Notes: generated from the sequence alone by a model not told the origin. A stretch of 51,413 nt of DNA from a virus (IMGVR_UViG_2563366798_000003:1-51413); one strand, 5' to 3'; positions 42,111 to 50,214 are shown, counted from the first letter of the stretch. Numbers and translations: made by a program.

Positions 42111-42179
42111 AATTGTTATAACCCATATAAGGGCACCAGAAATGGTGCCTTTTTTATTGCAGAAAAGCGAGAGGTAATT

Positions 42180-42779
42180 ATGCGTAAACTTTATGCCGCC
42201 ATTTTTTCCGCAGCCATCTGTCTGGCCGTATCCGGTGCGCCTGCATGGGCATCTGAACATCAGTCCACGCTGAGCGCGGGGTATCTTCATGCCTCGACGA
42301 ACGTTCCCGGCAGCGATGATCTTAACGGGATTAACGTGAAATACCGTTATGAGTTTACGGACACACTGGGGCTGGTGACGTCATTCAGCTATGCAGGAGA
42401 CAAGAATCGCCAGCTTACCCGTTACAGCGATACCCGCTGGCATGAAGATTCCGTGCGTAACCGCTGGTTCAGCGTGATGGCGGGGCCGTCTGTGCGCGTG
42501 AATGAATGGTTCAGTGCTTATGCGATGGCGGGTGTGGCTTACAGCCGTGTTTCGACGTTCTCCGGGGATTATCTCCGCGTAACTGACAACAAGGGGAAAA
42601 CGCACGATGTGCTGACCGGAAGTGATGACGGTCGCCACAGCGACACGTCTCTGGCGTGGGGAGCTGGCGTGCAGTTTAACCCGACCGAATCCGTGGCCAT
42701 TGATATTGCTTATGAAGGCTCCGGCAGTGGCGACTGGCGTACTGACGGTTTCATCGTGGGTGTCGGTTATAAATTCTGA
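42180..42779 (+). CDS. lom: Ail/Lom-family outer membrane protein
   Basis: 199 aa with signal peptide and C-terminal [24 protein letters not shown] identical to lambda Lom C-terminus. Confidence 0.9.
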
Positions 42780-42843
42780 TTAGCCAGGTAACACAGTGTT
42801 ATTACAGCCCGCCGGTTCAGGCGGGCTTTTTTGTGGAGTGGAT

Positions 42844-45201
42844 ATGGCAGCAGTAAAAATCTCAGGTGTGCTGAAAGATGGTGCGGGAAAACCAATACAG
42901 AACTGCACTATTCAACTGAAGGCAAAGCGTAACAGCACCACGGTACTGGTGAACACGGTGGCCTCTGAAAATCCGGATGAAGCCGGGCGTTACAGCATGG
43001 ATGTTGAGTATGGCCAGTACAGCGTCACCCTGCTGGTTGAAGGTTTTCCGCCTTCACATGCCGGGATCATTACCGTCTATGAAGGTTCCAGACCCGGTAC
43101 GCTGAATGATTTTCTCGGTGCCATGACGGAAGATGACGTCATGCCGGAGGCATTGCGTCGTTTTGAGGCAATGGTGGAAGAAGCGGCACGCAACGCCGAA
43201 GCCGCCTCTCAGAGCGCAGCGGCGGCAAAGAAATCCGAAACGGCTGCGGCATCATCGAAGAACGCGGCGAAAACCTCAGAAACGAATGCAGCTAACAGCG
43301 CACAGGCGGCAGCGGCCTCGCAGACTGCATCGGCAAACTCCGCGACAGCAGCCAAAAAATCAGAAACCAACGCGAAAAATAGCGAGACAGCCGCAAAGAC
43401 GAGCGAAACCAACGCAAAGTCCAGCCAGACGGCAGCGAAAACCAGCGAAACGAATGCCAAAGCCAGTGAAACTGCGGCGAAAAATAGCCAGAATGCAGCA
43501 GCCGAAAGCGAGAGTGCGGCAGCTGGTTCTGCGACTTCAGCAGCTGGATCAGCAACTGCTGCGGCTAACAGCCAGAAAGCAGCGAAGACGAGCGAAACTA
43601 ACGCAAAGTCCAGCCAGACGGCAGCGAAGACCAGCGAAACGAATGCCAAAGCCAGCGAAACTGCGGCGAAAAGCAGTCAGGATGCAGCAGCTGAAAGCGA
43701 GAGTGCCGCAGCTGGTTCTGCAACAGCGGCAGCTAATAGCCAAAAAGCTGCAAAAACCAGTGAAACTAACGCAAAGACGAGTGAAACAAAAGCAGCAGCT
43801 AGCGAGACAGAAGCAACGTCAGCCGCAACAAGAGCAGAGAATGCAGCCCGGATTGCAGAAGATGCCGCTGATCCTGCTTCTGTCCCTCCGCTTCCTGATA
43901 TCTGGCTACCCTTGAATGATTCTCTGGAAGCGATAACAGGGTATGCCCCGGGCTATAAAACAATAACCATCGGCAGTGATGAAATAACAATGCCTGTTAA
44001 TGGCATATGCCAATTTAGCCGGGCTTCATCTGCAACGTATATTGATAAGTCCGGGCATATTACCGTGGCAGGGAATAACGTTCCTCGTTTTGAAAAATAT
44101 GGTTTGCTGATAGAGAATCAGCGAACAAACATGTTCGTAAATAGTTTTAATCCTGATGCCTGGAATAAAAGCGGTGGTATATCTGTAACATCATCAACAG
44201 ATGAATTTGAGTTTAAATATGGACGTTTCACGGTAGGAAGCGATATAGCAGGAACGACAACAGGGAGAAATATATGCACAGTTGCTGGTAACAAAGGCAT
44301 AGATGTGACTGGCGATGATCAGTACAGTAAAGGTCCGTATGTTACCGCGTCGTTCAGGGTAAGAAGTGATCTCAATGTTCGCGCACGTATCCGTTTTGAA
44401 CGGTATAACTCGGAAGGATACACCTTCCTTTGCGACGCCTATTTGTCATTACAGACCCATGAACTACAAATTACTGGTGGCAATGCCCAGCTATTAACAG
44501 CAAACTTTGAAATCGATCCTGGTAGTGGATGGATATACTTTCAGGCAACACTGAAATGTCTGCCAGAATGGGGAATGGTTGGTACGCAGCTGCAAATTGC
44601 AGCCGACAGAGCTGTGGGGTCTTTTGCAACAGGTGACTGGATAGAAGTAACCACCCCGCAATTCGAGTATGGTGCTTGTGCAACTTCCTTCATCATAACG
44701 ACAACAGAGCCAGCGACTCGTGCATCAGATTTATGTAAATTTCCGCTGATGAAAAATATGTATACCATGCCTTTTACGTTCATGGTGGAAGTCCATAAAA
44801 ACTGGTTTATTTCTCATAATGCTGCACCGCGTGTCATTGATTCAGAAAATCACCAGTCCGGAGGCCCATTTATTATGGGGTTTGGTTCTTCTGGAACTAT
44901 TAGTCAGGACGGTTATTCGTATTGCGATATAGGCGGGGCTAACCGACGTGTATATGAATCATGCGGAGTAAGGGATCTCGTTATGGGATTCAGGGTTAAG
45001 GCTGACGGCATGACATGCTCATTTGCAAATAAGCATATAAGCACTGAAACAAAAACAGTATGGAAATATATTCGTGAAGCAGCCGTGATTCGTATCGGGG
45101 GGCAAACGACGACAGGATTACGACACCTTAATGGTCATATAAAAAACCTCCGTTTCTGGAACAGAGCATTGTCAGATACGCAGCTTAAGGAATACGTATA
45201 A
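42844..45201 (+). CDS. stf: side tail fibre protein Stf (lambda-like N-terminus, repeat-rich middle, divergent C-terminus)
   Basis: N-terminus MAAVKISGVLKDGAGKPIQNCTIQLKAKRNSTTVLVNTVASENPDEAGRYSMDVEYGQYSV matches lambda Stf; GGAGTGG SD before ATG 42844. Confidence 0.85.
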   Translation: MAAVKISGVLKDGAGKPIQNCTIQLKAKRNSTTVLVNTVASENPDEAGRYSMDVEYGQYSVTLLVEGFPPSHAGIITVYEGSRPGTLNDFLGAMTEDDVMPEALRRFEAMVEEAARNAEAASQSAAAAKKSETAAASSKNAAKTSETNAANSAQAAAASQTASANSATAAKKSETNAKNSETAAKTSETNAKSSQTAAKTSETNAKASETAAKNSQNAAAESESAAAGSATSAAGSATAAANSQKAAKTSETNAKSSQTAAKTSETNAKASETAAKSSQDAAAESESAAAGSATAAANSQKAAKTSETNAKTSETKAAASETEATSAATRAENAARIAEDAADPASVPPLPDIWLPLNDSLEAITGYAPGYKTITIGSDEITMPVNGICQFSRASSATYIDKSGHITVAGNNVPRFEKYGLLIENQRTNMFVNSFNPDAWNKSGGISVTSSTDEFEFKYGRFTVGSDIAGTTTGRNICTVAGNKGIDVTGDDQYSKGPYVTASFRVRSDLNVRARIRFERYNSEGYTFLCDAYLSLQTHELQITGGNAQLLTANFEIDPGSGWIYFQATLKCLPEWGMVGTQLQIAADRAVGSFATGDWIEVTTPQFEYGACATSFIITTTEPATRASDLCKFPLMKNMYTMPFTFMVEVHKNWFISHNAAPRVIDSENHQSGGPFIMGFGSSGTISQDGYSYCDIGGANRRVYESCGVRDLVMGFRVKADGMTCSFANKHISTETKTVWKYIREAAVIRIGGQTTTGLRHLNGHIKNLRFWNRALSDTQLKEYV

Positions 45202-45470
45202 TGCGGGATATAACATTACGATTCGATAACAGAGAACAGTTTAACGCAATTGTATATGACAGTGGCCTGTTCAGTCTTGAAGAAGAAAACGGGGTTCTTG
45301 TTGATGTTATTGGCTGCATTATCGATTACGAGGAGCCAGAAAACGAAAGATGTACAGGCATTGATCGCGGTGGTTTTTTCGTAAACATGAGGATTGTTGA
45401 TAGCAGTAAAAACATATCTTCTTTAATGCCTTTCATTACGACAGATCAGCATGTAAGGACATGGGCTTAA
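45201..45470 (+). CDS. hypothetical protein (89 aa) in tail-fibre module
   Basis: ORF overlapping stf stop (TAATG); AT-rich; no family recognised. Confidence 0.45.
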   Translation: MRDITLRFDNREQFNAIVYDSGLFSLEEENGVLVDVIGCIIDYEEPENERCTGIDRGGFFVNMRIVDSSKNISSLMPFITTDQHVRTWA

Positions 45471-45482
45471 TGGAGTAAGACA

Positions 45483-46523
45483 ATGGTTACAAAAACAGTA
45501 ATTCCTGATGACATCAAAACGCTAAAATCCGATGTTAGTAAACTAAAAACTGATCAAGGAAGCTATGCAACAAAATCATATGTAGACAATAAAACAACAT
45601 GGAATAGTTATTGCAATGTAATCTATGATCAAAAGGCATTGCCGACCACTGGAACTATATTTAGCGGTAAGATTCACTTGTCAAATAAGGCAGGAGAAAC
45701 CGAAAACGCTTATAGCGAGATGTACACCAGAAAAAATATTGACGGCACTAAAGATACAATGACAAGGATTGTCACACACAACGGAACAAAAGGTATCTTC
45801 TGGGATTTTAGCGATCTTTACGGTGGGACATTGATTTTCCCAGGAAATGAAGGTTACTTAAAAATGGGTAAGTGCCTCATGTCTTATGGGAATCGTGTTG
45901 ATAACGCCATTATTAAATTTGATTACACAGACACATTACAAATCAAATACGCTAATCATGGGTCAACCATGACATTAAACACACAGGGAACCGCTCACGC
46001 TGGCGTAACAACTAGACTATGGGGTAGTTCTAGCCGTCCGGTTGTTTATGAAGTTGGCGTAGATGAGGCTCTGTATATGTTCTACGCACAGAAAACTACC
46101 AGCAATACCTACGAATTAACGGTTAACGGCGCGTGCAATGCAAGTGCATTTAATCAAGGCTCTGACCGGGATCTGAAAGACAATATTCAGGTGATCGATA
46201 ATGCAACCGACCGCATTCGTAAAATGAACGGCTATACATACACGCTTAAAGAAAACGGTATGCCTTACGCTGGTGTTATTGCACAAGAAACCCTGGAAGC
46301 CATCCCCGAAGCCGTAGGGGCTATGATGAAATATCCAGACGGCGGGAGTGGATTAGATGGAGAAGAAGGTGAACGGTATTACACTGTAGATTATTCTGGT
46401 GTTACTGGCTTGCTTGTTCAGGTAGCCAGAGAGTCAGACGACAGGATAACAGCACTGGAAGAAGAAAACGCAGAATTAAGACAAAGATTATCTGCAATTG
46501 AGGCGGTGCTTGCGTCTAAATAA
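45483..46523 (+). CDS. tail fibre/tailspike-like protein with C-terminal intramolecular chaperone (peptidase S74-type) domain
   Basis: 346 aa; C-terminal region (SDRDLKDNIQVID...GYTYTLKENGMPYAGVIAQE...YYTVDYSGVTGLLVQ...coiled coil) resembles autoproteolytic chaperone domains of phage fibres. Confidence 0.65.
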   Translation: MVTKTVIPDDIKTLKSDVSKLKTDQGSYATKSYVDNKTTWNSYCNVIYDQKALPTTGTIFSGKIHLSNKAGETENAYSEMYTRKNIDGTKDTMTRIVTHNGTKGIFWDFSDLYGGTLIFPGNEGYLKMGKCLMSYGNRVDNAIIKFDYTDTLQIKYANHGSTMTLNTQGTAHAGVTTRLWGSSSRPVVYEVGVDEALYMFYAQKTTSNTYELTVNGACNASAFNQGSDRDLKDNIQVIDNATDRIRKMNGYTYTLKENGMPYAGVIAQETLEAIPEAVGAMMKYPDGGSGLDGEEGERYYTVDYSGVTGLLVQVARESDDRITALEEENAELRQRLSAIEAVLASK

Positions 46524-46550
46524 TATTAAGGGGCCGAGCGCCCCATTTTA

Positions 46551-46859
46551 TTGGGTAGGATGAAAATGGATATAACACCTTTCCTTCATGCACTTTGTGC
46601 TGTGGCTGCGCAGCTACTGATTGGTCTTTTTACCGGGAACTGGGCTTACGGAGCGATAGCCGGTTGTACGTTCTTCATTGCGCGTGAACACACCCAGGCA
46701 GAATATCGCTGGATCGAAATGTTCGGGCATGGCAAGCGAATGAATATGCCGTGGTGGGGCGGTTTTGATACACGTGCATGGGATGTGGCAAGCCTGATGG
46801 ATTTTGCTGTGCCGGTGGTGGCGTGTCTGCTGGTCTGGCTGTTGGTTAATCGTGGGTGA
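46551..46859 (+). CDS. small membrane protein (about 100 aa, two predicted TM helices)
   Basis: Hydrophobic segments LHALCAVAAQLLIGLF and FAVPVVACLLVWLLV; last gene before the AT-rich spacer. Confidence 0.45.
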   Translation: MGRMKMDITPFLHALCAVAAQLLIGLFTGNWAYGAIAGCTFFIAREHTQAEYRWIEMFGHGKRMNMPWWGGFDTRAWDVASLMDFAVPVVACLLVWLLVNRG

Positions 46860-47535
46860 AAAAAGGTGAGCTGTATATGCAACGGAGGAAGAAACCCCGT
46901 TGCTGGAAGCCTGGAAAAAGTATCGGATGCTGCTAAACCGTGTGGACACTTCCGTAGCACCAGATATCGAGTGGCTTATTCAACCATAATAAACAGTATG
47001 TATATCATAGGTTATTAATTGTGAGTTTTTTCGGTGTGTTATTTGTTTGTTTGATGTTATGCTTTTGCGCCCCAAAAGGTTGTTTAGATGTATTTTATCA
47101 ATTGATTTTCAATATCGTTTAATAAAGAAAAATTAAGCAAGCTGGATGTTGGTTTTTTGTTAATTGAATGGTTCTAATAATGTTTTTTTACTGTTGTTGA
47201 ATGTGACTTGATAAGAAATGCAAGTAAAAATGATACTCTTTTTATTTTAAATTCAAACGGTTGACATATATATAGCAAGAGGTTTCAGGTGCGTTGTAGT
47301 GAGTTTATGTTAATAAAAAGCATATTAATCGTTGAAAAAATGTAACTTTGAAATACGTTAGAATAAAAAACAATATACATATAATAATTTAATCTTAAAT
47401 GAAATTTATTAAAATTTGCAAACTATAATTTTGTGTATAAAAATATAAATGCACATCATCCTGATTATGATTGTGTATTTAATTGGTTGTTATTTGACTA
47501 CTATCAACTTGTTTTAATTTTATGATAGGTGCAAG

Positions 47536-48285
47536 ATGGATTATGTTTGCTCCGTAGTTTTCATCTGTCAATCATTTGATTTAATTATAAACAGGAGAGT
47601 TATCTCGTTCAAAAAAAATTCATTGTTTATTGTAAGCGACAAAATTAGAAGAGAGTTACCAGTATGCCCCTCTAAACTAAGAATTGTTGATATAGATAAG
47701 AAAACATGTTTATCCTTTTTTATCGACGTGAATAATGAGTTGCCTGGCAAATTTACTCTTGATAAGAATGGCTATATTGCTGAAGAGGAACCTCCATTAT
47801 CGCTTGTTTTTTCTCTGTTTGAAGGGATTAAAATAGCAGACTCACACTCCCTTTGGTTAAAAGAAAGACTATGTATATCCTTACTTGCCATGTTCAAAAA
47901 ACGCGAAAGTGTAAATTCATTTATACTAACAAATATAAATACATTTACCTGTAAAATTACTGGAATAATCAGTTTTAATATTGAGCGGCAATGGCATTTA
48001 AAAGATATTGCGGAATTGATTTATACGAGTGAAAGTTTAATAAAAAAAAGATTAAGGGATGAAGAAACGTCATTTACTGAAATATTGAGAGATACTAGGA
48101 TGAGGTATGCAAAAAAACTCATAACTTCAAACTCTTATTCTATCAATGTCGTAGCCCAGAAATGTGGCTATAACAGTACTTCATATTTCATATGTGCATT
48201 TAAAGATTATTATGGTGTCACGCCATCTCATTATTTTGAGAAAATAATCGGCGTCACAGATGGAATAAACAAAACAATTGACTGA
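47536..48285 (+). CDS. appY: AraC-family regulator, AppY-like
   Basis: 249 aa, strongly AT-rich, C-terminal AraC HTH; sequence and position next to ompT match my recollection of E. coli AppY. Confidence 0.75.
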
Positions 48286-48534: not shown

Positions 48535-49488
48535 TTAAAATGTGTACTTAAGACCAGCAGTAGTGATGAAGTTATAGTTTTCTATGCCTGCTCCATTTTT
48601 GCTGTAGTCTGAAGTGTTATTATTGTGATCATAAAGTGAAGTATTACCTTTTTTATTCGTAACCCGATTCCATGCGCCTTCAACATAAACTTTTGCGTTA
48701 GGTGTGACGTAATAACCTGCATTGACTGCAACAGAATAGTAATTTTGGTCTTTGACCTTACTGCGATAAGTGATTCTTTTTCCCGGGTCATAGTGTTCAT
48801 CGTTATCAGATGATTCCACCCAGCCGCTGTATTTAAATGTGCCACCTAGCTCAAAATCTTCATAACGATAACTTCCAGTCAAGCCAATGTAGGGCATTTT
48901 AAAACGTTGTTTGTAGCCGATTGCTCTTTCTCCATTCGGGAAGGAGCCGATATCATCTCTGAATCCCTCCTCAGAACTGTAGATATAGGAACCACCTCTG
49001 GCTGTAAAGCTATAACGGCTTTCCTGATATCCGGCCATGAGTCCCAGGCGGTAATTGGGTTCGTTGAGGAGCCAGCCTTTGATATTCAGATCAAATTCGT
49101 TGGCATAATTGAGTTGTGTATCAGGATGTCTACTTTCATCCGTCCAGGTTCCGGGGTTACTGGAATCCATCCAGTCCTGATCGACCATATTGCCACCTCG
49201 GCTGCCGAGTGTTGTCCAGCCAGCAGCCCCGATAGATATCTGAGGCATCAAATCCCAATTAATTGCACCTTTAATAATTGCAGCGTTATTGAATTTCCAG
49301 TCAAGTTGACTGACTTTTCGGCTTCCTTCTTCGGCTAGATAAACACGCTCTTTTGTTTTTCCGCTCAGAGTTCCAAGACTAATGTCCGCATTTATGTTGT
49401 CAGGAGTAAACGATAAAGTCTCGGTAGAAGCAAAAGAGTTGATCGCAATAGGGGTTGTCAGGACTATTCCCAGAAGTTTCGCCCGCAT
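48535..49488 (-). CDS. ompT: outer membrane protease OmpT (omptin)
   Basis: 317 aa matching E. coli OmpT (MRAKLLGIVLTTPIAI...TAGLKYTF). Confidence 0.95.
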   Translation of the reverse strand: MRAKLLGIVLTTPIAINSFASTETLSFTPDNINADISLGTLSGKTKERVYLAEEGSRKVSQLDWKFNNAAIIKGAINWDLMPQISIGAAGWTTLGSRGGNMVDQDWMDSSNPGTWTDESRHPDTQLNYANEFDLNIKGWLLNEPNYRLGLMAGYQESRYSFTARGGSYIYSSEEGFRDDIGSFPNGERAIGYKQRFKMPYIGLTGSYRYEDFELGGTFKYSGWVESSDNDEHYDPGKRITYRSKVKDQNYYSVAVNAGYYVTPNAKVYVEGAWNRVTNKKGNTSLYDHNNNTSDYSKNGAGIENYNFITTAGLKYTF

Positions 49489-50038
49489 AAAAGTTCTCCA
49501 TTCAATCGTTTTAATGATTGAATATGTATTTTTTATATCTAACTTAATGAGTCAATTACATATTGCTCCACTGTTTATATTTTGTTTAGTATTGAATGAT
49601 TATCACAATGCGCTATCTGTTTTTGGTTTAATTATCTGTTATTGTTTCATATTGCGGTTTTACTGTGTGGTTTTTTTATGATTTTGTGGTGCTTTTATCT
49701 ATTTAAGTGCCATGCCTTTAGAGGCATATAAGCGAAAATAGCATGAGGTTTATCCTCAATTACTATGTTTTTTAGTACAAAAAAGAGGGACAAAACTGAG
49801 ACACATAAGGCCTCACAAAGGTCTGCAAGGCTTCACATGTATTGAGATGTTAATAAAATGTAGGCTTGTAATTTTGATATAAATGGTAGATAAAACCTTT
49901 CCCCAAAATAAAAACGAACGTCAATAAAATCAAACGGTTGAATAAAGTTGATTTTGGCTAATAAAAAGACAATAAAATAATTTTTATCATTAAATATCAA
50001 TGAATTGAACTTAATGTTTTTATATACTGCTGCGCCAT

Positions 50039-50190
50039 ATGGGCTGGACTGAAGCCGCAGACCTGATTGTTAAAGGTATGGAAGGCGCAATCAACGCCAA
50101 GACCGTAACCTATGACTTCGAACGTCTGATGGAAGGCGCTAAGCTGCTGAAATGTTCAGAGTTTGGTGACGCGATCATCAAAAACATGTA
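50039..50190 (+). pseudogene. icd: 3' fragment of isocitrate dehydrogenase gene (icd C-terminal duplicate, icdC-like)
   Basis: Encodes ...[49 protein letters not shown]-stop, the Icd C-terminus, with no upstream coding continuation. Confidence 0.8.
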
Positions 50191-50214
50191 ATCACTACAT
50201 GTGTTAAATATTGT

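Follow-up and report, generated by a model that had tools for sequence, protein, structure and literature searches.

A widespread, exchangeable tail-fibre cassette and an accessory membrane-protein gene in the stf region of a lambdoid prophage integrated at icd

In phage DT57C, LtfB was shown by genetics to be attached through LtfA, giving a branched, L-shaped fibre in which the two proteins recognise different O-antigens (PMC4728585, PMC10713586). In the lateral fibre locus of the T5-like phage IrisVonRoten (Bas32 of the BASEL collection), the proximal fibre Gp22 is followed by Gp23 and by Gp24, a "T-shaped" fibre with an S74 chaperone domain; an AlphaFold-Multimer model seats Gp24 on Gp22, whose last domain is galectin-like (10.1101/2024.09.12.612763). 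The locus described here has the same gene order. By published description, it also resembles DT57C in having a second, S74-chaperoned fibre, here most likely joined via the first fibre and not via the tail, although LtfA carries an S74 chaperone of its own and lacks the type of C-terminal domain found here, and no gene for a protein of about 90 aa is described in DT57C.

The DNA analysed (the window, 51,413 nucleotides; IMGVR_UViG_2563366798_000003) is a lambdoid prophage at icd with a 100% match to Escherichia coli strain 582. Its stf gene (42844..45201, plus strand, as are all features below) encodes the proximal subunit of the side tail fibre, 785 aa from the PGAP start within an 801-aa ORF that opens at GTG 42796, and the product matches phrog_1419 across its full length. 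Stf has an N-terminal anchor of the lambda type, then a shaft of Ala-rich repeats (about 43340-43800, with tandem repeats of 21 nt and 189 nt at 43344-43794) and a foreign, lectin-like C-terminal half. As in lambda, the gene follows J and lom and the N-terminus carries the tail-attachment domain PF08400 (Pfam phage_tail_N; E 2.5e-66, residues 19-148 of the 801-aa ORF). The C-terminal part of about 450 residues, StfC (43900..45198), is encoded by low-GC DNA and matches NCBIfam GTA_spike_fiber (E 2.2e-12, residues 438-643) and PDB 6tb9, the RcGTA head spike fibre Rcc01080 (E 7e-4). In contrast to lambda, the C-terminal receptor-binding region and the chaperone Tfa are replaced by StfC, an 89-aa protein and an S74 fibre. 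Three ORFs of 89 aa, 346 aa and 102 aa (the last from a TTG start) lie 3' of stf, as a preliminary description of this DNA had reported. They are uninterrupted in several sequenced phages, and each has a full-length match to one PHROG family (phrog_1361, phrog_4563 and phrog_1443, respectively); therefore, none of them is a chance ORF.

The same description had regarded the genes after stf as a separate module added to the fibre. This view is not borne out, since the StfC, 89-aa and S74 genes travel jointly, homologous and in the same order, across lambdoid, Queuovirinae and T5-like phages, and the back half of Stf together with the 89-aa and S74 genes is one widespread, exchangeable tail-fibre cassette. 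Carriers include PhiR11_1, 2G7b, the virulent Nonagvirus JenP1, the Seuratvirus VogelGryff and the T5-like IrisVonRoten, and the 14 loci with an S74 gene all keep the order of StfC, the gene for about 90 aa and the S74 gene. In PhiR11_1, which forms plaques on MG1655, all four proteins are conserved (Stf 98%, 89-aa protein 99%, 346-aa protein 90%, membrane protein 97% identity). The divergence from 2G7b is uneven (Stf 66%, 89-aa protein 33%, S74 fibre 73%, membrane protein 99%), showing that sub-modules have been exchanged as a mosaic. Over Stf residues 131-785, identity is 45% to IrisVonRoten Gp22, the C-terminal lectin-like domain included, 44% to VogelGryff gp22 and 39% to JenP1 gp23, the last along its full length. 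IrisVonRoten thus shares a homologous C-terminal domain of the proximal fibre, a gene for about 90 aa (Gp23, 33% to the 89-aa protein) and an S74 fibre in order, Gp24 having both the docking peptide described below and the S74 domain. It differs in its T5 Ltf-type N-terminal anchor, where the window has a lambda Stf-type one, in the size of Gp24 (574 aa with two receptor-binding domains, while a length of 346 aa leaves space for one), and in being virulent with no membrane-protein gene downstream. The cassette is likewise found in JenP1 (gp23-24-25) and VogelGryff (gp22-23-24); for JenP1, identity is 29% between gp24 and the 89-aa protein and, across 333 residues, 80% between gp25 and the 346-aa protein, but both phages are virulent siphoviruses with neither a membrane-protein gene nor a tfa scar.

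The 89-aa gene (45201..45470), whose start overlaps the stf stop (TAATG), occupies the position of tfa. No full-length Tfa gene follows stf directly, that position being held by the unrelated phrog_1361 protein; all that is left is a 36-codon 3' remnant at 46879..46989, annotated by PGAP as a pseudogene ("tail fiber assembly protein, missing N-terminus"). The absence of tfa where lambda has it had been noticed before, and the remnant is the scar of an ancestral stf-tfa arrangement. The gene for about 90 aa lies directly 3' of the StfC domain in 29 of 29 loci, whether or not an S74 gene is present. The S74 gene comes next in about half of the loci: it is present in 14 and missing in at least nine with enough downstream DNA, among them that of the classical phage 21. 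This coupling to StfC shows that the 89-aa gene belongs to Stf and not to the S74 gene. The protein may be a dedicated assembly or accessory factor of StfC, which would make it a functional substitute for Tfa. Alternatively, it could be a structural adaptor that joins the S74 fibre to Stf: its gene always lies between the two fibre genes where both exist, and the IrisVonRoten homologue is labelled "tail fiber protein" in GenBank. We regard this as rather doubtful, because the gene is kept in the loci without an S74 gene and because the divergence of the protein tracks StfC, not the S74 fibre. Structure prediction gave moderate confidence (pLDDT 67), a search for structural neighbours returned nothing informative, and the PADLOC defence profiles had no match at E up to 0.1.

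The S74 gene (45483-46523) encodes a 346-aa fibre with a C-terminal intramolecular chaperone, in agreement with the preliminary description. The match to Pfam PF13884 (Peptidase_S74; E 8.7e-14, 52 bits against a gathering cut-off of 22) covers residues 227-278, in the C-terminal part, and the chaperone region of PDB 6f45 matches residues 214-332 (E 0.0019). A catalytic dyad is present as Ser227-Asp-Arg-Asp-Leu-Lys232, which has the S-x4-K spacing of Ser1264/Lys1269 in T5 pb1, where the roles of these residues and the mechanism have been described (PMC4690869). The scissile bond is predicted between Gly226 and Ser227, separating a mature fibre part (residues 1-226; 45483..46160; phrog_4563, E 8.4e-200) from the chaperone (residues 227-346; 46161..46523), the C-terminus of which resembles a coiled coil. 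The predicted mature part comprises a conserved docking peptide at its N-terminus (residues 1-17), then a short heptad-like stretch, then the receptor-binding tip. Its residues 87-226 can be aligned with the distal ends of proteins in the long tail-fibre families phrog_5668 and phrog_6578. As a fibre with an intramolecular chaperone, the protein plausibly bears a receptor-binding tip.

How this protein is attached bears on the reading of it as a second, independent tail fibre on the tail tip, with a receptor specificity separate from that of Stf. Its gene is a complete ORF with its own start codon and a Shine-Dalgarno-like GGAG, the distal region is of the receptor-binding type and is followed by the S74 chaperone, and exchange of the S74 sub-module is uncoupled from that of StfC (73-80% against 39-66% identity). 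On the other hand, no anchor or tail-attachment domain was found in the N-terminus with Pfam, NCBIfam or PHROG. What the 346-aa protein has in common with JenP1 gp25, IrisVonRoten gp24 and VogelGryff gp24 at this end is MVTKTVIPxDIxxLK, and the 17-residue N-terminal peptide is all that it shares with the otherwise unrelated S74 fibres of these cassettes. Fibres with the docking peptide follow the StfC and ~90-aa pair at every locus examined, and these loci span three unrelated tail types (lambda-like, T5-like and Queuovirinae); one peptide with three tail types fits docking on a shared element of the cassette, not on three tail tips. In addition, the published model seats the IrisVonRoten homologue on the proximal fibre. 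An independent extra fibre is therefore unlikely, and the protein, as judged from sequence comparison, most likely docks on Stf as an optional subunit, either distal or forming a branch. The suggestion of a second receptor specificity is retained in part: the S74 tip is a plausible carrier, but, lacking an anchor domain and hung on Stf, it would place any second specificity on the same fibre. We infer that the 346-aa protein would trimerise with the aid of its chaperone, which would then cleave itself off at Gly226-Ser227, and that the mature trimer of ~24 kDa may dock via the conserved N-terminal peptide onto the distal part of Stf. The side fibres would then bear two glycan- or receptor-binding elements, the lectin-like domain of StfC and the S74 tip. 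Meanwhile, the VogelGryff S74 homologue is annotated as a "putative lateral tail fiber chaperone", i.e., some annotators treat it as non-structural, which speaks against a fibre subunit.

The base composition of the region is consistent with its acquisition by horizontal transfer, as proposed before, in that it is both compositionally foreign and mosaic. J and the front of stf have 52-63% GC; at about 43900 in stf the value falls from 50-57% to 39-47%, and a low-GC block (33-47%) extends to the end of the S74 gene (~46520). An AT-rich stretch thus exists, but with boundaries other than those first drawn: it begins inside stf and leaves out the membrane-protein gene, which has 50-54% GC. Between the fibre and membrane-protein genes, a terminator scan found a GC-rich hairpin (46530..46553; GGGGC-CGAGC-GCCCC followed by ATTTTATT), which is a weak terminator-like element.

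The last gene (46566..46859; phrog_1443, E 3.3e-58) encodes a conserved membrane protein of 97 aa from ATG 46566 (RefSeq PGAP) or of 102 aa from an alternative TTG at 46551. Strong hydrophobicity in two stretches (about residues 3-25 and 73-95) is in line with the two membrane spans first claimed for it, while AlphaFold2 shows three helices (4-23, 26-53 and 74-96; mean pLDDT 87.5), so that it could have two or three transmembrane segments. The family comprises 453 homologues, with about 60% identity as far as Aeromonas and Comamonas, and 424 clusters at 50% identity, all stand-alone, in alpha-, beta- and gamma-proteobacteria. Its invariant core is REHTQAEYRW...MPWWGGFD; among polar residues, D2, E41, Q44 and E46 are invariant and H8, Q16, H42, D68 and D79 nearly so, a conservation far above that of the adjacent genes. 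No match was found in family, defence or structure libraries (Pfam, NCBIfam, and PADLOC at E up to 0.1).

In proteobacterial prophages the gene usually lies 3' of tail-fibre or tailspike genes, and the type of receptor-binding gene next to it varies among siphoviruses, podoviruses and myoviruses. In the P22-like phage Gally its neighbours are the tailspike gene before it and int behind it; an S74 fibre gene precedes it in an Aeromonas P2/HP1-like prophage, and the ~90-aa gene does so in phage 21. Some chromosomal contexts do not look like prophages. Phage 21 (gp22-23-24, OL657228) is similar to the window in its icd-type integration, in a Stf with StfC, in a 92-aa protein and in a 97-aa "putative membrane protein" (95% identical), but it has no S74 fibre gene and carries sitABCD cargo where the window has appY/ompT-like cargo. 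All four presence/absence combinations of the membrane-protein and S74 genes are found, and an S74 protein is encoded upstream of the membrane-protein gene at only 4 of 38 diverse loci. Therefore, the membrane protein is not tied to the S74 gene; it is a separate, optional gene that recurs immediately 3' of the receptor-binding genes of many prophage types.

Genes for superinfection exclusion or conversion occur beside receptor-binding genes in several phages (T5 llp, T1/phi80 cor, P22 gtrABC, HK97 gp15). The present gene has a similar position and its product is likewise membrane-embedded, but the protein has no lipobox and no library match and is much more conserved across bacterial classes. 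From gene position, we tentatively consider an inner-membrane factor whose target may be a conserved component of the envelope or of entry, and which would exclude superinfecting phage or spare progeny. Such extreme conservation is unlike that of typical receptor-specific exclusion proteins and counts against exclusion, as do the lack of a recognisable promoter of its own in the window and the location of the Comamonas copies in a late operon beside lysis genes. A receptor-blocking lipoprotein like Cor or Llp was rejected on the missing lipobox (a basic n-region is absent from the N-terminus, MDITPFLHALCAV, and Leu precedes Cys11) and the lack of a family match.

The Comamonas loci also raise the least probable reading that we weighed, namely a lysis-associated or late envelope factor (a holin, an antiholin or a release-related protein) in place of a lysogenic-conversion or exclusion protein. 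There the gene is part of the late operon, where stop and start codons overlap, and holin-like, endolysin and Rz-type spanin genes follow it directly; this position is the lone point in favour of a holin as such. In phage 21 the 12 nt that separate it from the preceding ~90-aa gene hold nothing but a ribosome-binding site, and the protein is small, with 2-3 membrane helices. However, no Pfam or PHROG holin family matches it, its C-terminus (...LLVNRG) is short and not highly charged, and other holin-like candidates are already present in the Comamonas loci. In the window the gene lies 3' of fibre genes, not of lysis genes, and the lysis cassette lies well apart from it in lambdoid prophages of E. 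coli, in P22-like prophages and in P2/HP1-like prophages of Aeromonas; its sole constant neighbour is a receptor-binding gene. That neighbour is usually a glycan-binding fibre or spike gene, which would also suit a protein that alters the cell surface through the O-antigen or another undecaprenyl-phosphate-linked glycan pathway and so lowers adsorption of its own and related phages. Seroconversion genes adjoin tailspike genes in an analogous way; the slot between tailspike and int in Gally is the one that holds gtrABC in P22 and oac in Sf6. The conserved polar residues suggest a ligand or active site more than a simple plug. Such a role is nevertheless improbable, given that no glycosyl- or acetyltransferase is known to be as small as 97 aa and that the protein resembles neither GtrA nor any Pfam family and lacks a structural neighbour.

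As a whole, the region probably codes for a side tail fibre of composite make-up, built on a modular plan that is already known, and for one accessory protein unrelated to it. The fibre part is an ordinary member of a known architecture, and the uncharacterised part is one membrane-protein family, widespread in phages, predicted to reside in the inner membrane and encoded beside receptor-binding genes. It is possible, though we suggest it with reserve, that this family targets a conserved component of the envelope or of DNA entry and may represent an undescribed, generic form of exclusion or surface conversion.

The window comprises a complete lambdoid prophage within a segment of the E. coli chromosome, which carries from its left end the integrase, early genes, lysis genes, terminase, head, tail, J, lom and stf. 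In the queried segment (44800-47100) its sequence matches that of E. coli strain 582 (NZ_CP120568) at 100% identity; in that strain, appY- and ompT-like genes come after the prophage, and then a duplicated 3' piece of icd; an attachment site with such a piece is of the phage-21 type. In the window, the space from the fibre region to the duplicated icd 3' end (~50024-50191) holds a gene for an appY-like AraC regulator (47536-48285) and an omptin gene resembling ompT (48535-49488, minus strand), and the 500-bp stretch before appY is extremely AT-rich (25-30% GC). This arrangement resembles the appY-ompT pair that closes prophage DLP12 in K-12; unlike that in DLP12, the pair here sits in a phage-21-type icd prophage. 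An ompT gene is also found at the equivalent position in phage 2G7b.

Three open reading frames follow stf, as stated in the preliminary description, and each has a full-length match in a known PHROG family. RefSeq labels the first (89 aa, 45201-45470, plus strand) and the third as hypothetical proteins and the second (346 aa, 45483-46523, plus strand) as a 'tail fiber domain-containing protein'. It places the start of the third at ATG 46566, giving 97 aa up to the gene end at 46859, and annotates a tfa pseudogene fragment shortly 3' of this gene. The chaperone-type domain proposed for the 346-aa protein was recovered as a Peptidase_S74 match (E 8.7e-14) whose first residue is exactly Ser227. 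Together with Lys232, this residue forms an S-x4-K dyad, the same as Ser1264/Lys1269 of T5 pb1 (PMC4690869). While the ORFs and the S74 domain stand, the interpretation of the region as an acquired, AT-rich module holds only in part: the low GC content is real, but the borders differ, with GC falling at ~43900 within stf, staying at 33-47% until the S74 gene ends, and returning to 50-54% in the membrane-protein gene, which thus lies outside the block.

The right-hand recombination scar of the cassette swap is a 36-codon remnant of the tfa 3' end (46879-46989), and the cassette has therefore replaced the ancestral stf C-terminus together with tfa. Two tfa fragments occur at the equivalent place in 2G7b. 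Stf retains a lambda-type N-terminal anchor (PF08400), while its low-GC C-terminal part, here StfC (~43900-45198), matches NCBIfam GTA_spike_fiber and the structure of the RcGTA head-spike fibre (6tb9). The shaft before it contains 21-nt units (7 aa, KTSETNA-like) and a 189-nt duplication at 91% identity (43344-43794), with a very strong AT skew of up to 0.73; these repeats are likely a substrate for length variation and recombination among fibre genes. In Lambda_4C10 (LR595861, 2127-7305), a three-ORF insertion sequence breaks stf within the StfC region and the 92-aa and 97-aa genes remain intact, which makes the phage a natural stf knock-out much as laboratory lambda is.

The same gene string is carried by PhiR11_1, PhiR47_1 and PhiR55_1, all induced from ECOR strains, and by the lambda-like 2G7b and Tritos. 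PhiR11_1, for which K-12 MG1655 is the listed host, shares 98% (Stf), 99% (89-aa protein), 90% (S74 fibre) and 97% (membrane protein) protein identity with the window. The cassette is also present in virulent phages with quite different tails, namely Nonagvirus JenP1 (gp23-24-25), Seuratvirus VogelGryff (gp22-23-24) and T5-like IrisVonRoten (gp22-23-24). IrisVonRoten Gp22 is 45% identical to residues 131-785 of the window Stf, and only the N-terminal anchor differs; Gp22 was described as ending in a galectin-like domain that possibly binds a receptor itself (10.1101/2024.09.12.612763). Among 5426 complete E. coli genomes, 3243 contain matches to parts of the 2.3-kb query region, the membrane-protein gene included, and 76 have the full arrangement. 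A 2.8-kb contig (JAGZNZ010000051.1) assigned to a 'Collinsella sp.' MAG also bears the StfC, ~90-aa, S74 and membrane genes known from E. coli phages, with 96% identity for the membrane protein; this contig is almost certainly a binning contaminant.

HMMs were built for StfC, the ~90-aa protein, the S74 chaperone (from four seeds) and the membrane protein, and every collected locus was scanned. The ~90-aa gene follows StfC in 29 of 29 loci. Of these 29 loci, 14 carry the S74 gene, and at least nine that have sufficient downstream DNA lack it; phage 21 is among the loci with StfC and the ~90-aa gene and no S74 gene. In the comparison with 2G7b, the 89-aa protein (33% identity) has diverged together with StfC, whereas the S74 fibre (73%) has not. 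On the basis of this coupling and joint divergence, the 89-aa protein belongs to Stf. Its gene occupies the position of tfa, and its start overlaps the stf stop (TAATG). The ~90-aa protein, mostly labelled 'hypothetical', is the constant partner of StfC; the S74 fibre is added to the pair only in some loci and is optional. The AlphaFold2 model of the 89-aa protein shows a small alpha/beta fold (pLDDT 67) for which no informative structural neighbour was found; the protein may serve either as a chaperone or as an adaptor. A group of IMG/VR prophage predictions of ~53 kb (L060-L072) encodes a 604-aa StfC-type fibre with an ~88-aa partner, and in most members the predicted prophage stops at the partner gene. 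In L063-L065, three members whose downstream DNA exceeds 1.5 kb, both the S74 fibre and the membrane gene are absent; the S74 gene is likewise missing from L072, whose downstream DNA is too short to judge the membrane gene.

No attachment domain was detectable in the 346-aa protein with Pfam and NCBIfam. However, its N-terminal peptide, MVTKTVIPDDIKTLK, conforms to the motif MVTKTVIPxDIxxLK, which is common to JenP1 gp25, IrisVonRoten Gp24 and VogelGryff gp24. In their receptor-binding parts, these three proteins are otherwise unrelated to the 346-aa protein. Since the peptide is kept on cassettes of three tail types that share the StfC-type proximal fibre, it is best explained, judging from sequence, as a docking element for that component. 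An AlphaFold-Multimer model for IrisVonRoten likewise proposes docking on the proximal fibre (10.1101/2024.09.12.612763), and the genetically supported LtfA-LtfB arrangement of DT57C offers a parallel (PMC4728585, PMC10713586). A literature search for virion proteomics of the Nonagvirus phage 9g returned nothing relevant. In the mechanism that we infer, the 89-aa protein would assist or cap StfC, and the 346-aa protein would trimerise on its own chaperone and then cut at Gly226-Ser227. The mature trimer of ~24 kDa would dock onto Stf, and the outcome would be a side fibre bearing two binding elements.

The third protein had been described as a small two-TM protein; it has two strongly hydrophobic segments, and its confident AlphaFold2 model (pLDDT 87.5) contains three helices. 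Homologues number 453 in a word-index search, with ~60% identity extending to Aeromonas, Comamonas and Leclercia and weaker members in Sphingomonas and Desulfovibrio. An HMM scan of 1.84 billion representative proteins gave 424 clusters, all stand-alone proteins of ~60-146 aa, with no domain fusion in the full-library search. The core REHTQAEYRW...GKR.NMPWWGGFD is essentially invariant, and polar D2, H8, Q16 and D79 are also conserved. No described function for the family was found in the searchable literature.

The usual site of the gene is right after the last receptor-binding gene, and tail and tail-fibre families are the commonest among the proteins encoded upstream; certain loci look chromosomal rather than prophage-borne. 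In the window, as in a P2/HP1-like prophage of Aeromonas, it follows the S74 fibre gene; in phage 21 and numerous lambda-like phages it follows the ~90-aa gene, and in Comamonas testosteroni a giant gpJ. In the P22-like podovirus Gally (OV696608, 5001-5288), a homologue with 79% identity is the sole gene between the tailspike gene and int, the slot in which P22 and Sf6 carry O-antigen conversion genes. A specific coupling to S74 fibres, prompted by the Aeromonas locus, was rejected: among 38 diverse loci, just four have an S74 protein upstream, and all four combinations of presence and absence of the two genes were found. The virulent phages with the same fibre cassette (JenP1, IrisVonRoten, VogelGryff) are without the membrane-protein gene.

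In a Comamonas kerstersii prophage (L017, 3802-7620), genes with overlapping stops and starts encode a tail fibre, a StfC-like protein (phrog_5939), a 95-aa protein (phrog_18574), the membrane homologue, an endolysin and an Rz-like spanin. The presence of the trio in this beta-proteobacterial prophage implies that the StfC/small-protein/membrane-protein trio of phage 21 long predates the E. coli phages. The endolysin and spanin genes that follow the homologue there would fit a late-infection or lysis-linked role, which is possible though not likely. In the window, a short GC hairpin and a weak T-run precede the membrane-protein gene; the promoter scan gave no convincing promoter of its own, and the sole nearby 9-of-12 match lies within the S74 gene, upstream of the hairpin. 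By contrast with this weak hairpin, lom (42180-42779) lies between strong terminator-like hairpins (42129-42152 and 42806-42827), the classic moron layout. The most natural reading of the gene's position, although a tentative one, is that the protein might act in superinfection exclusion, as suggested previously, or in surface conversion. Extremely conserved from one bacterial class to another, the protein more probably has a conserved cellular component than a phage-specific receptor as its target.

The BASEL papers (among them 10.1101/2024.09.12.612763) describe this architecture for T5-like phages and mention it for small siphoviruses, and the fibre cassette is another member of it. In the literature examined, it does not seem to be stated explicitly that the ~90-aa gene is strictly paired with StfC or that the S74 subunit is optional. 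In thousands of E. coli genomes the cassette genes are annotated in generic terms. The relevance of the fibre part lies mainly in annotation and in phage engineering, for which concrete swap boundaries for retargeting lambdoid particles lie at ~43900 within stf and at the tfa scar (46879). A lambda-type Stf can bear an exchangeable cassette that is also in use by T5-like and Queuovirinae phages.
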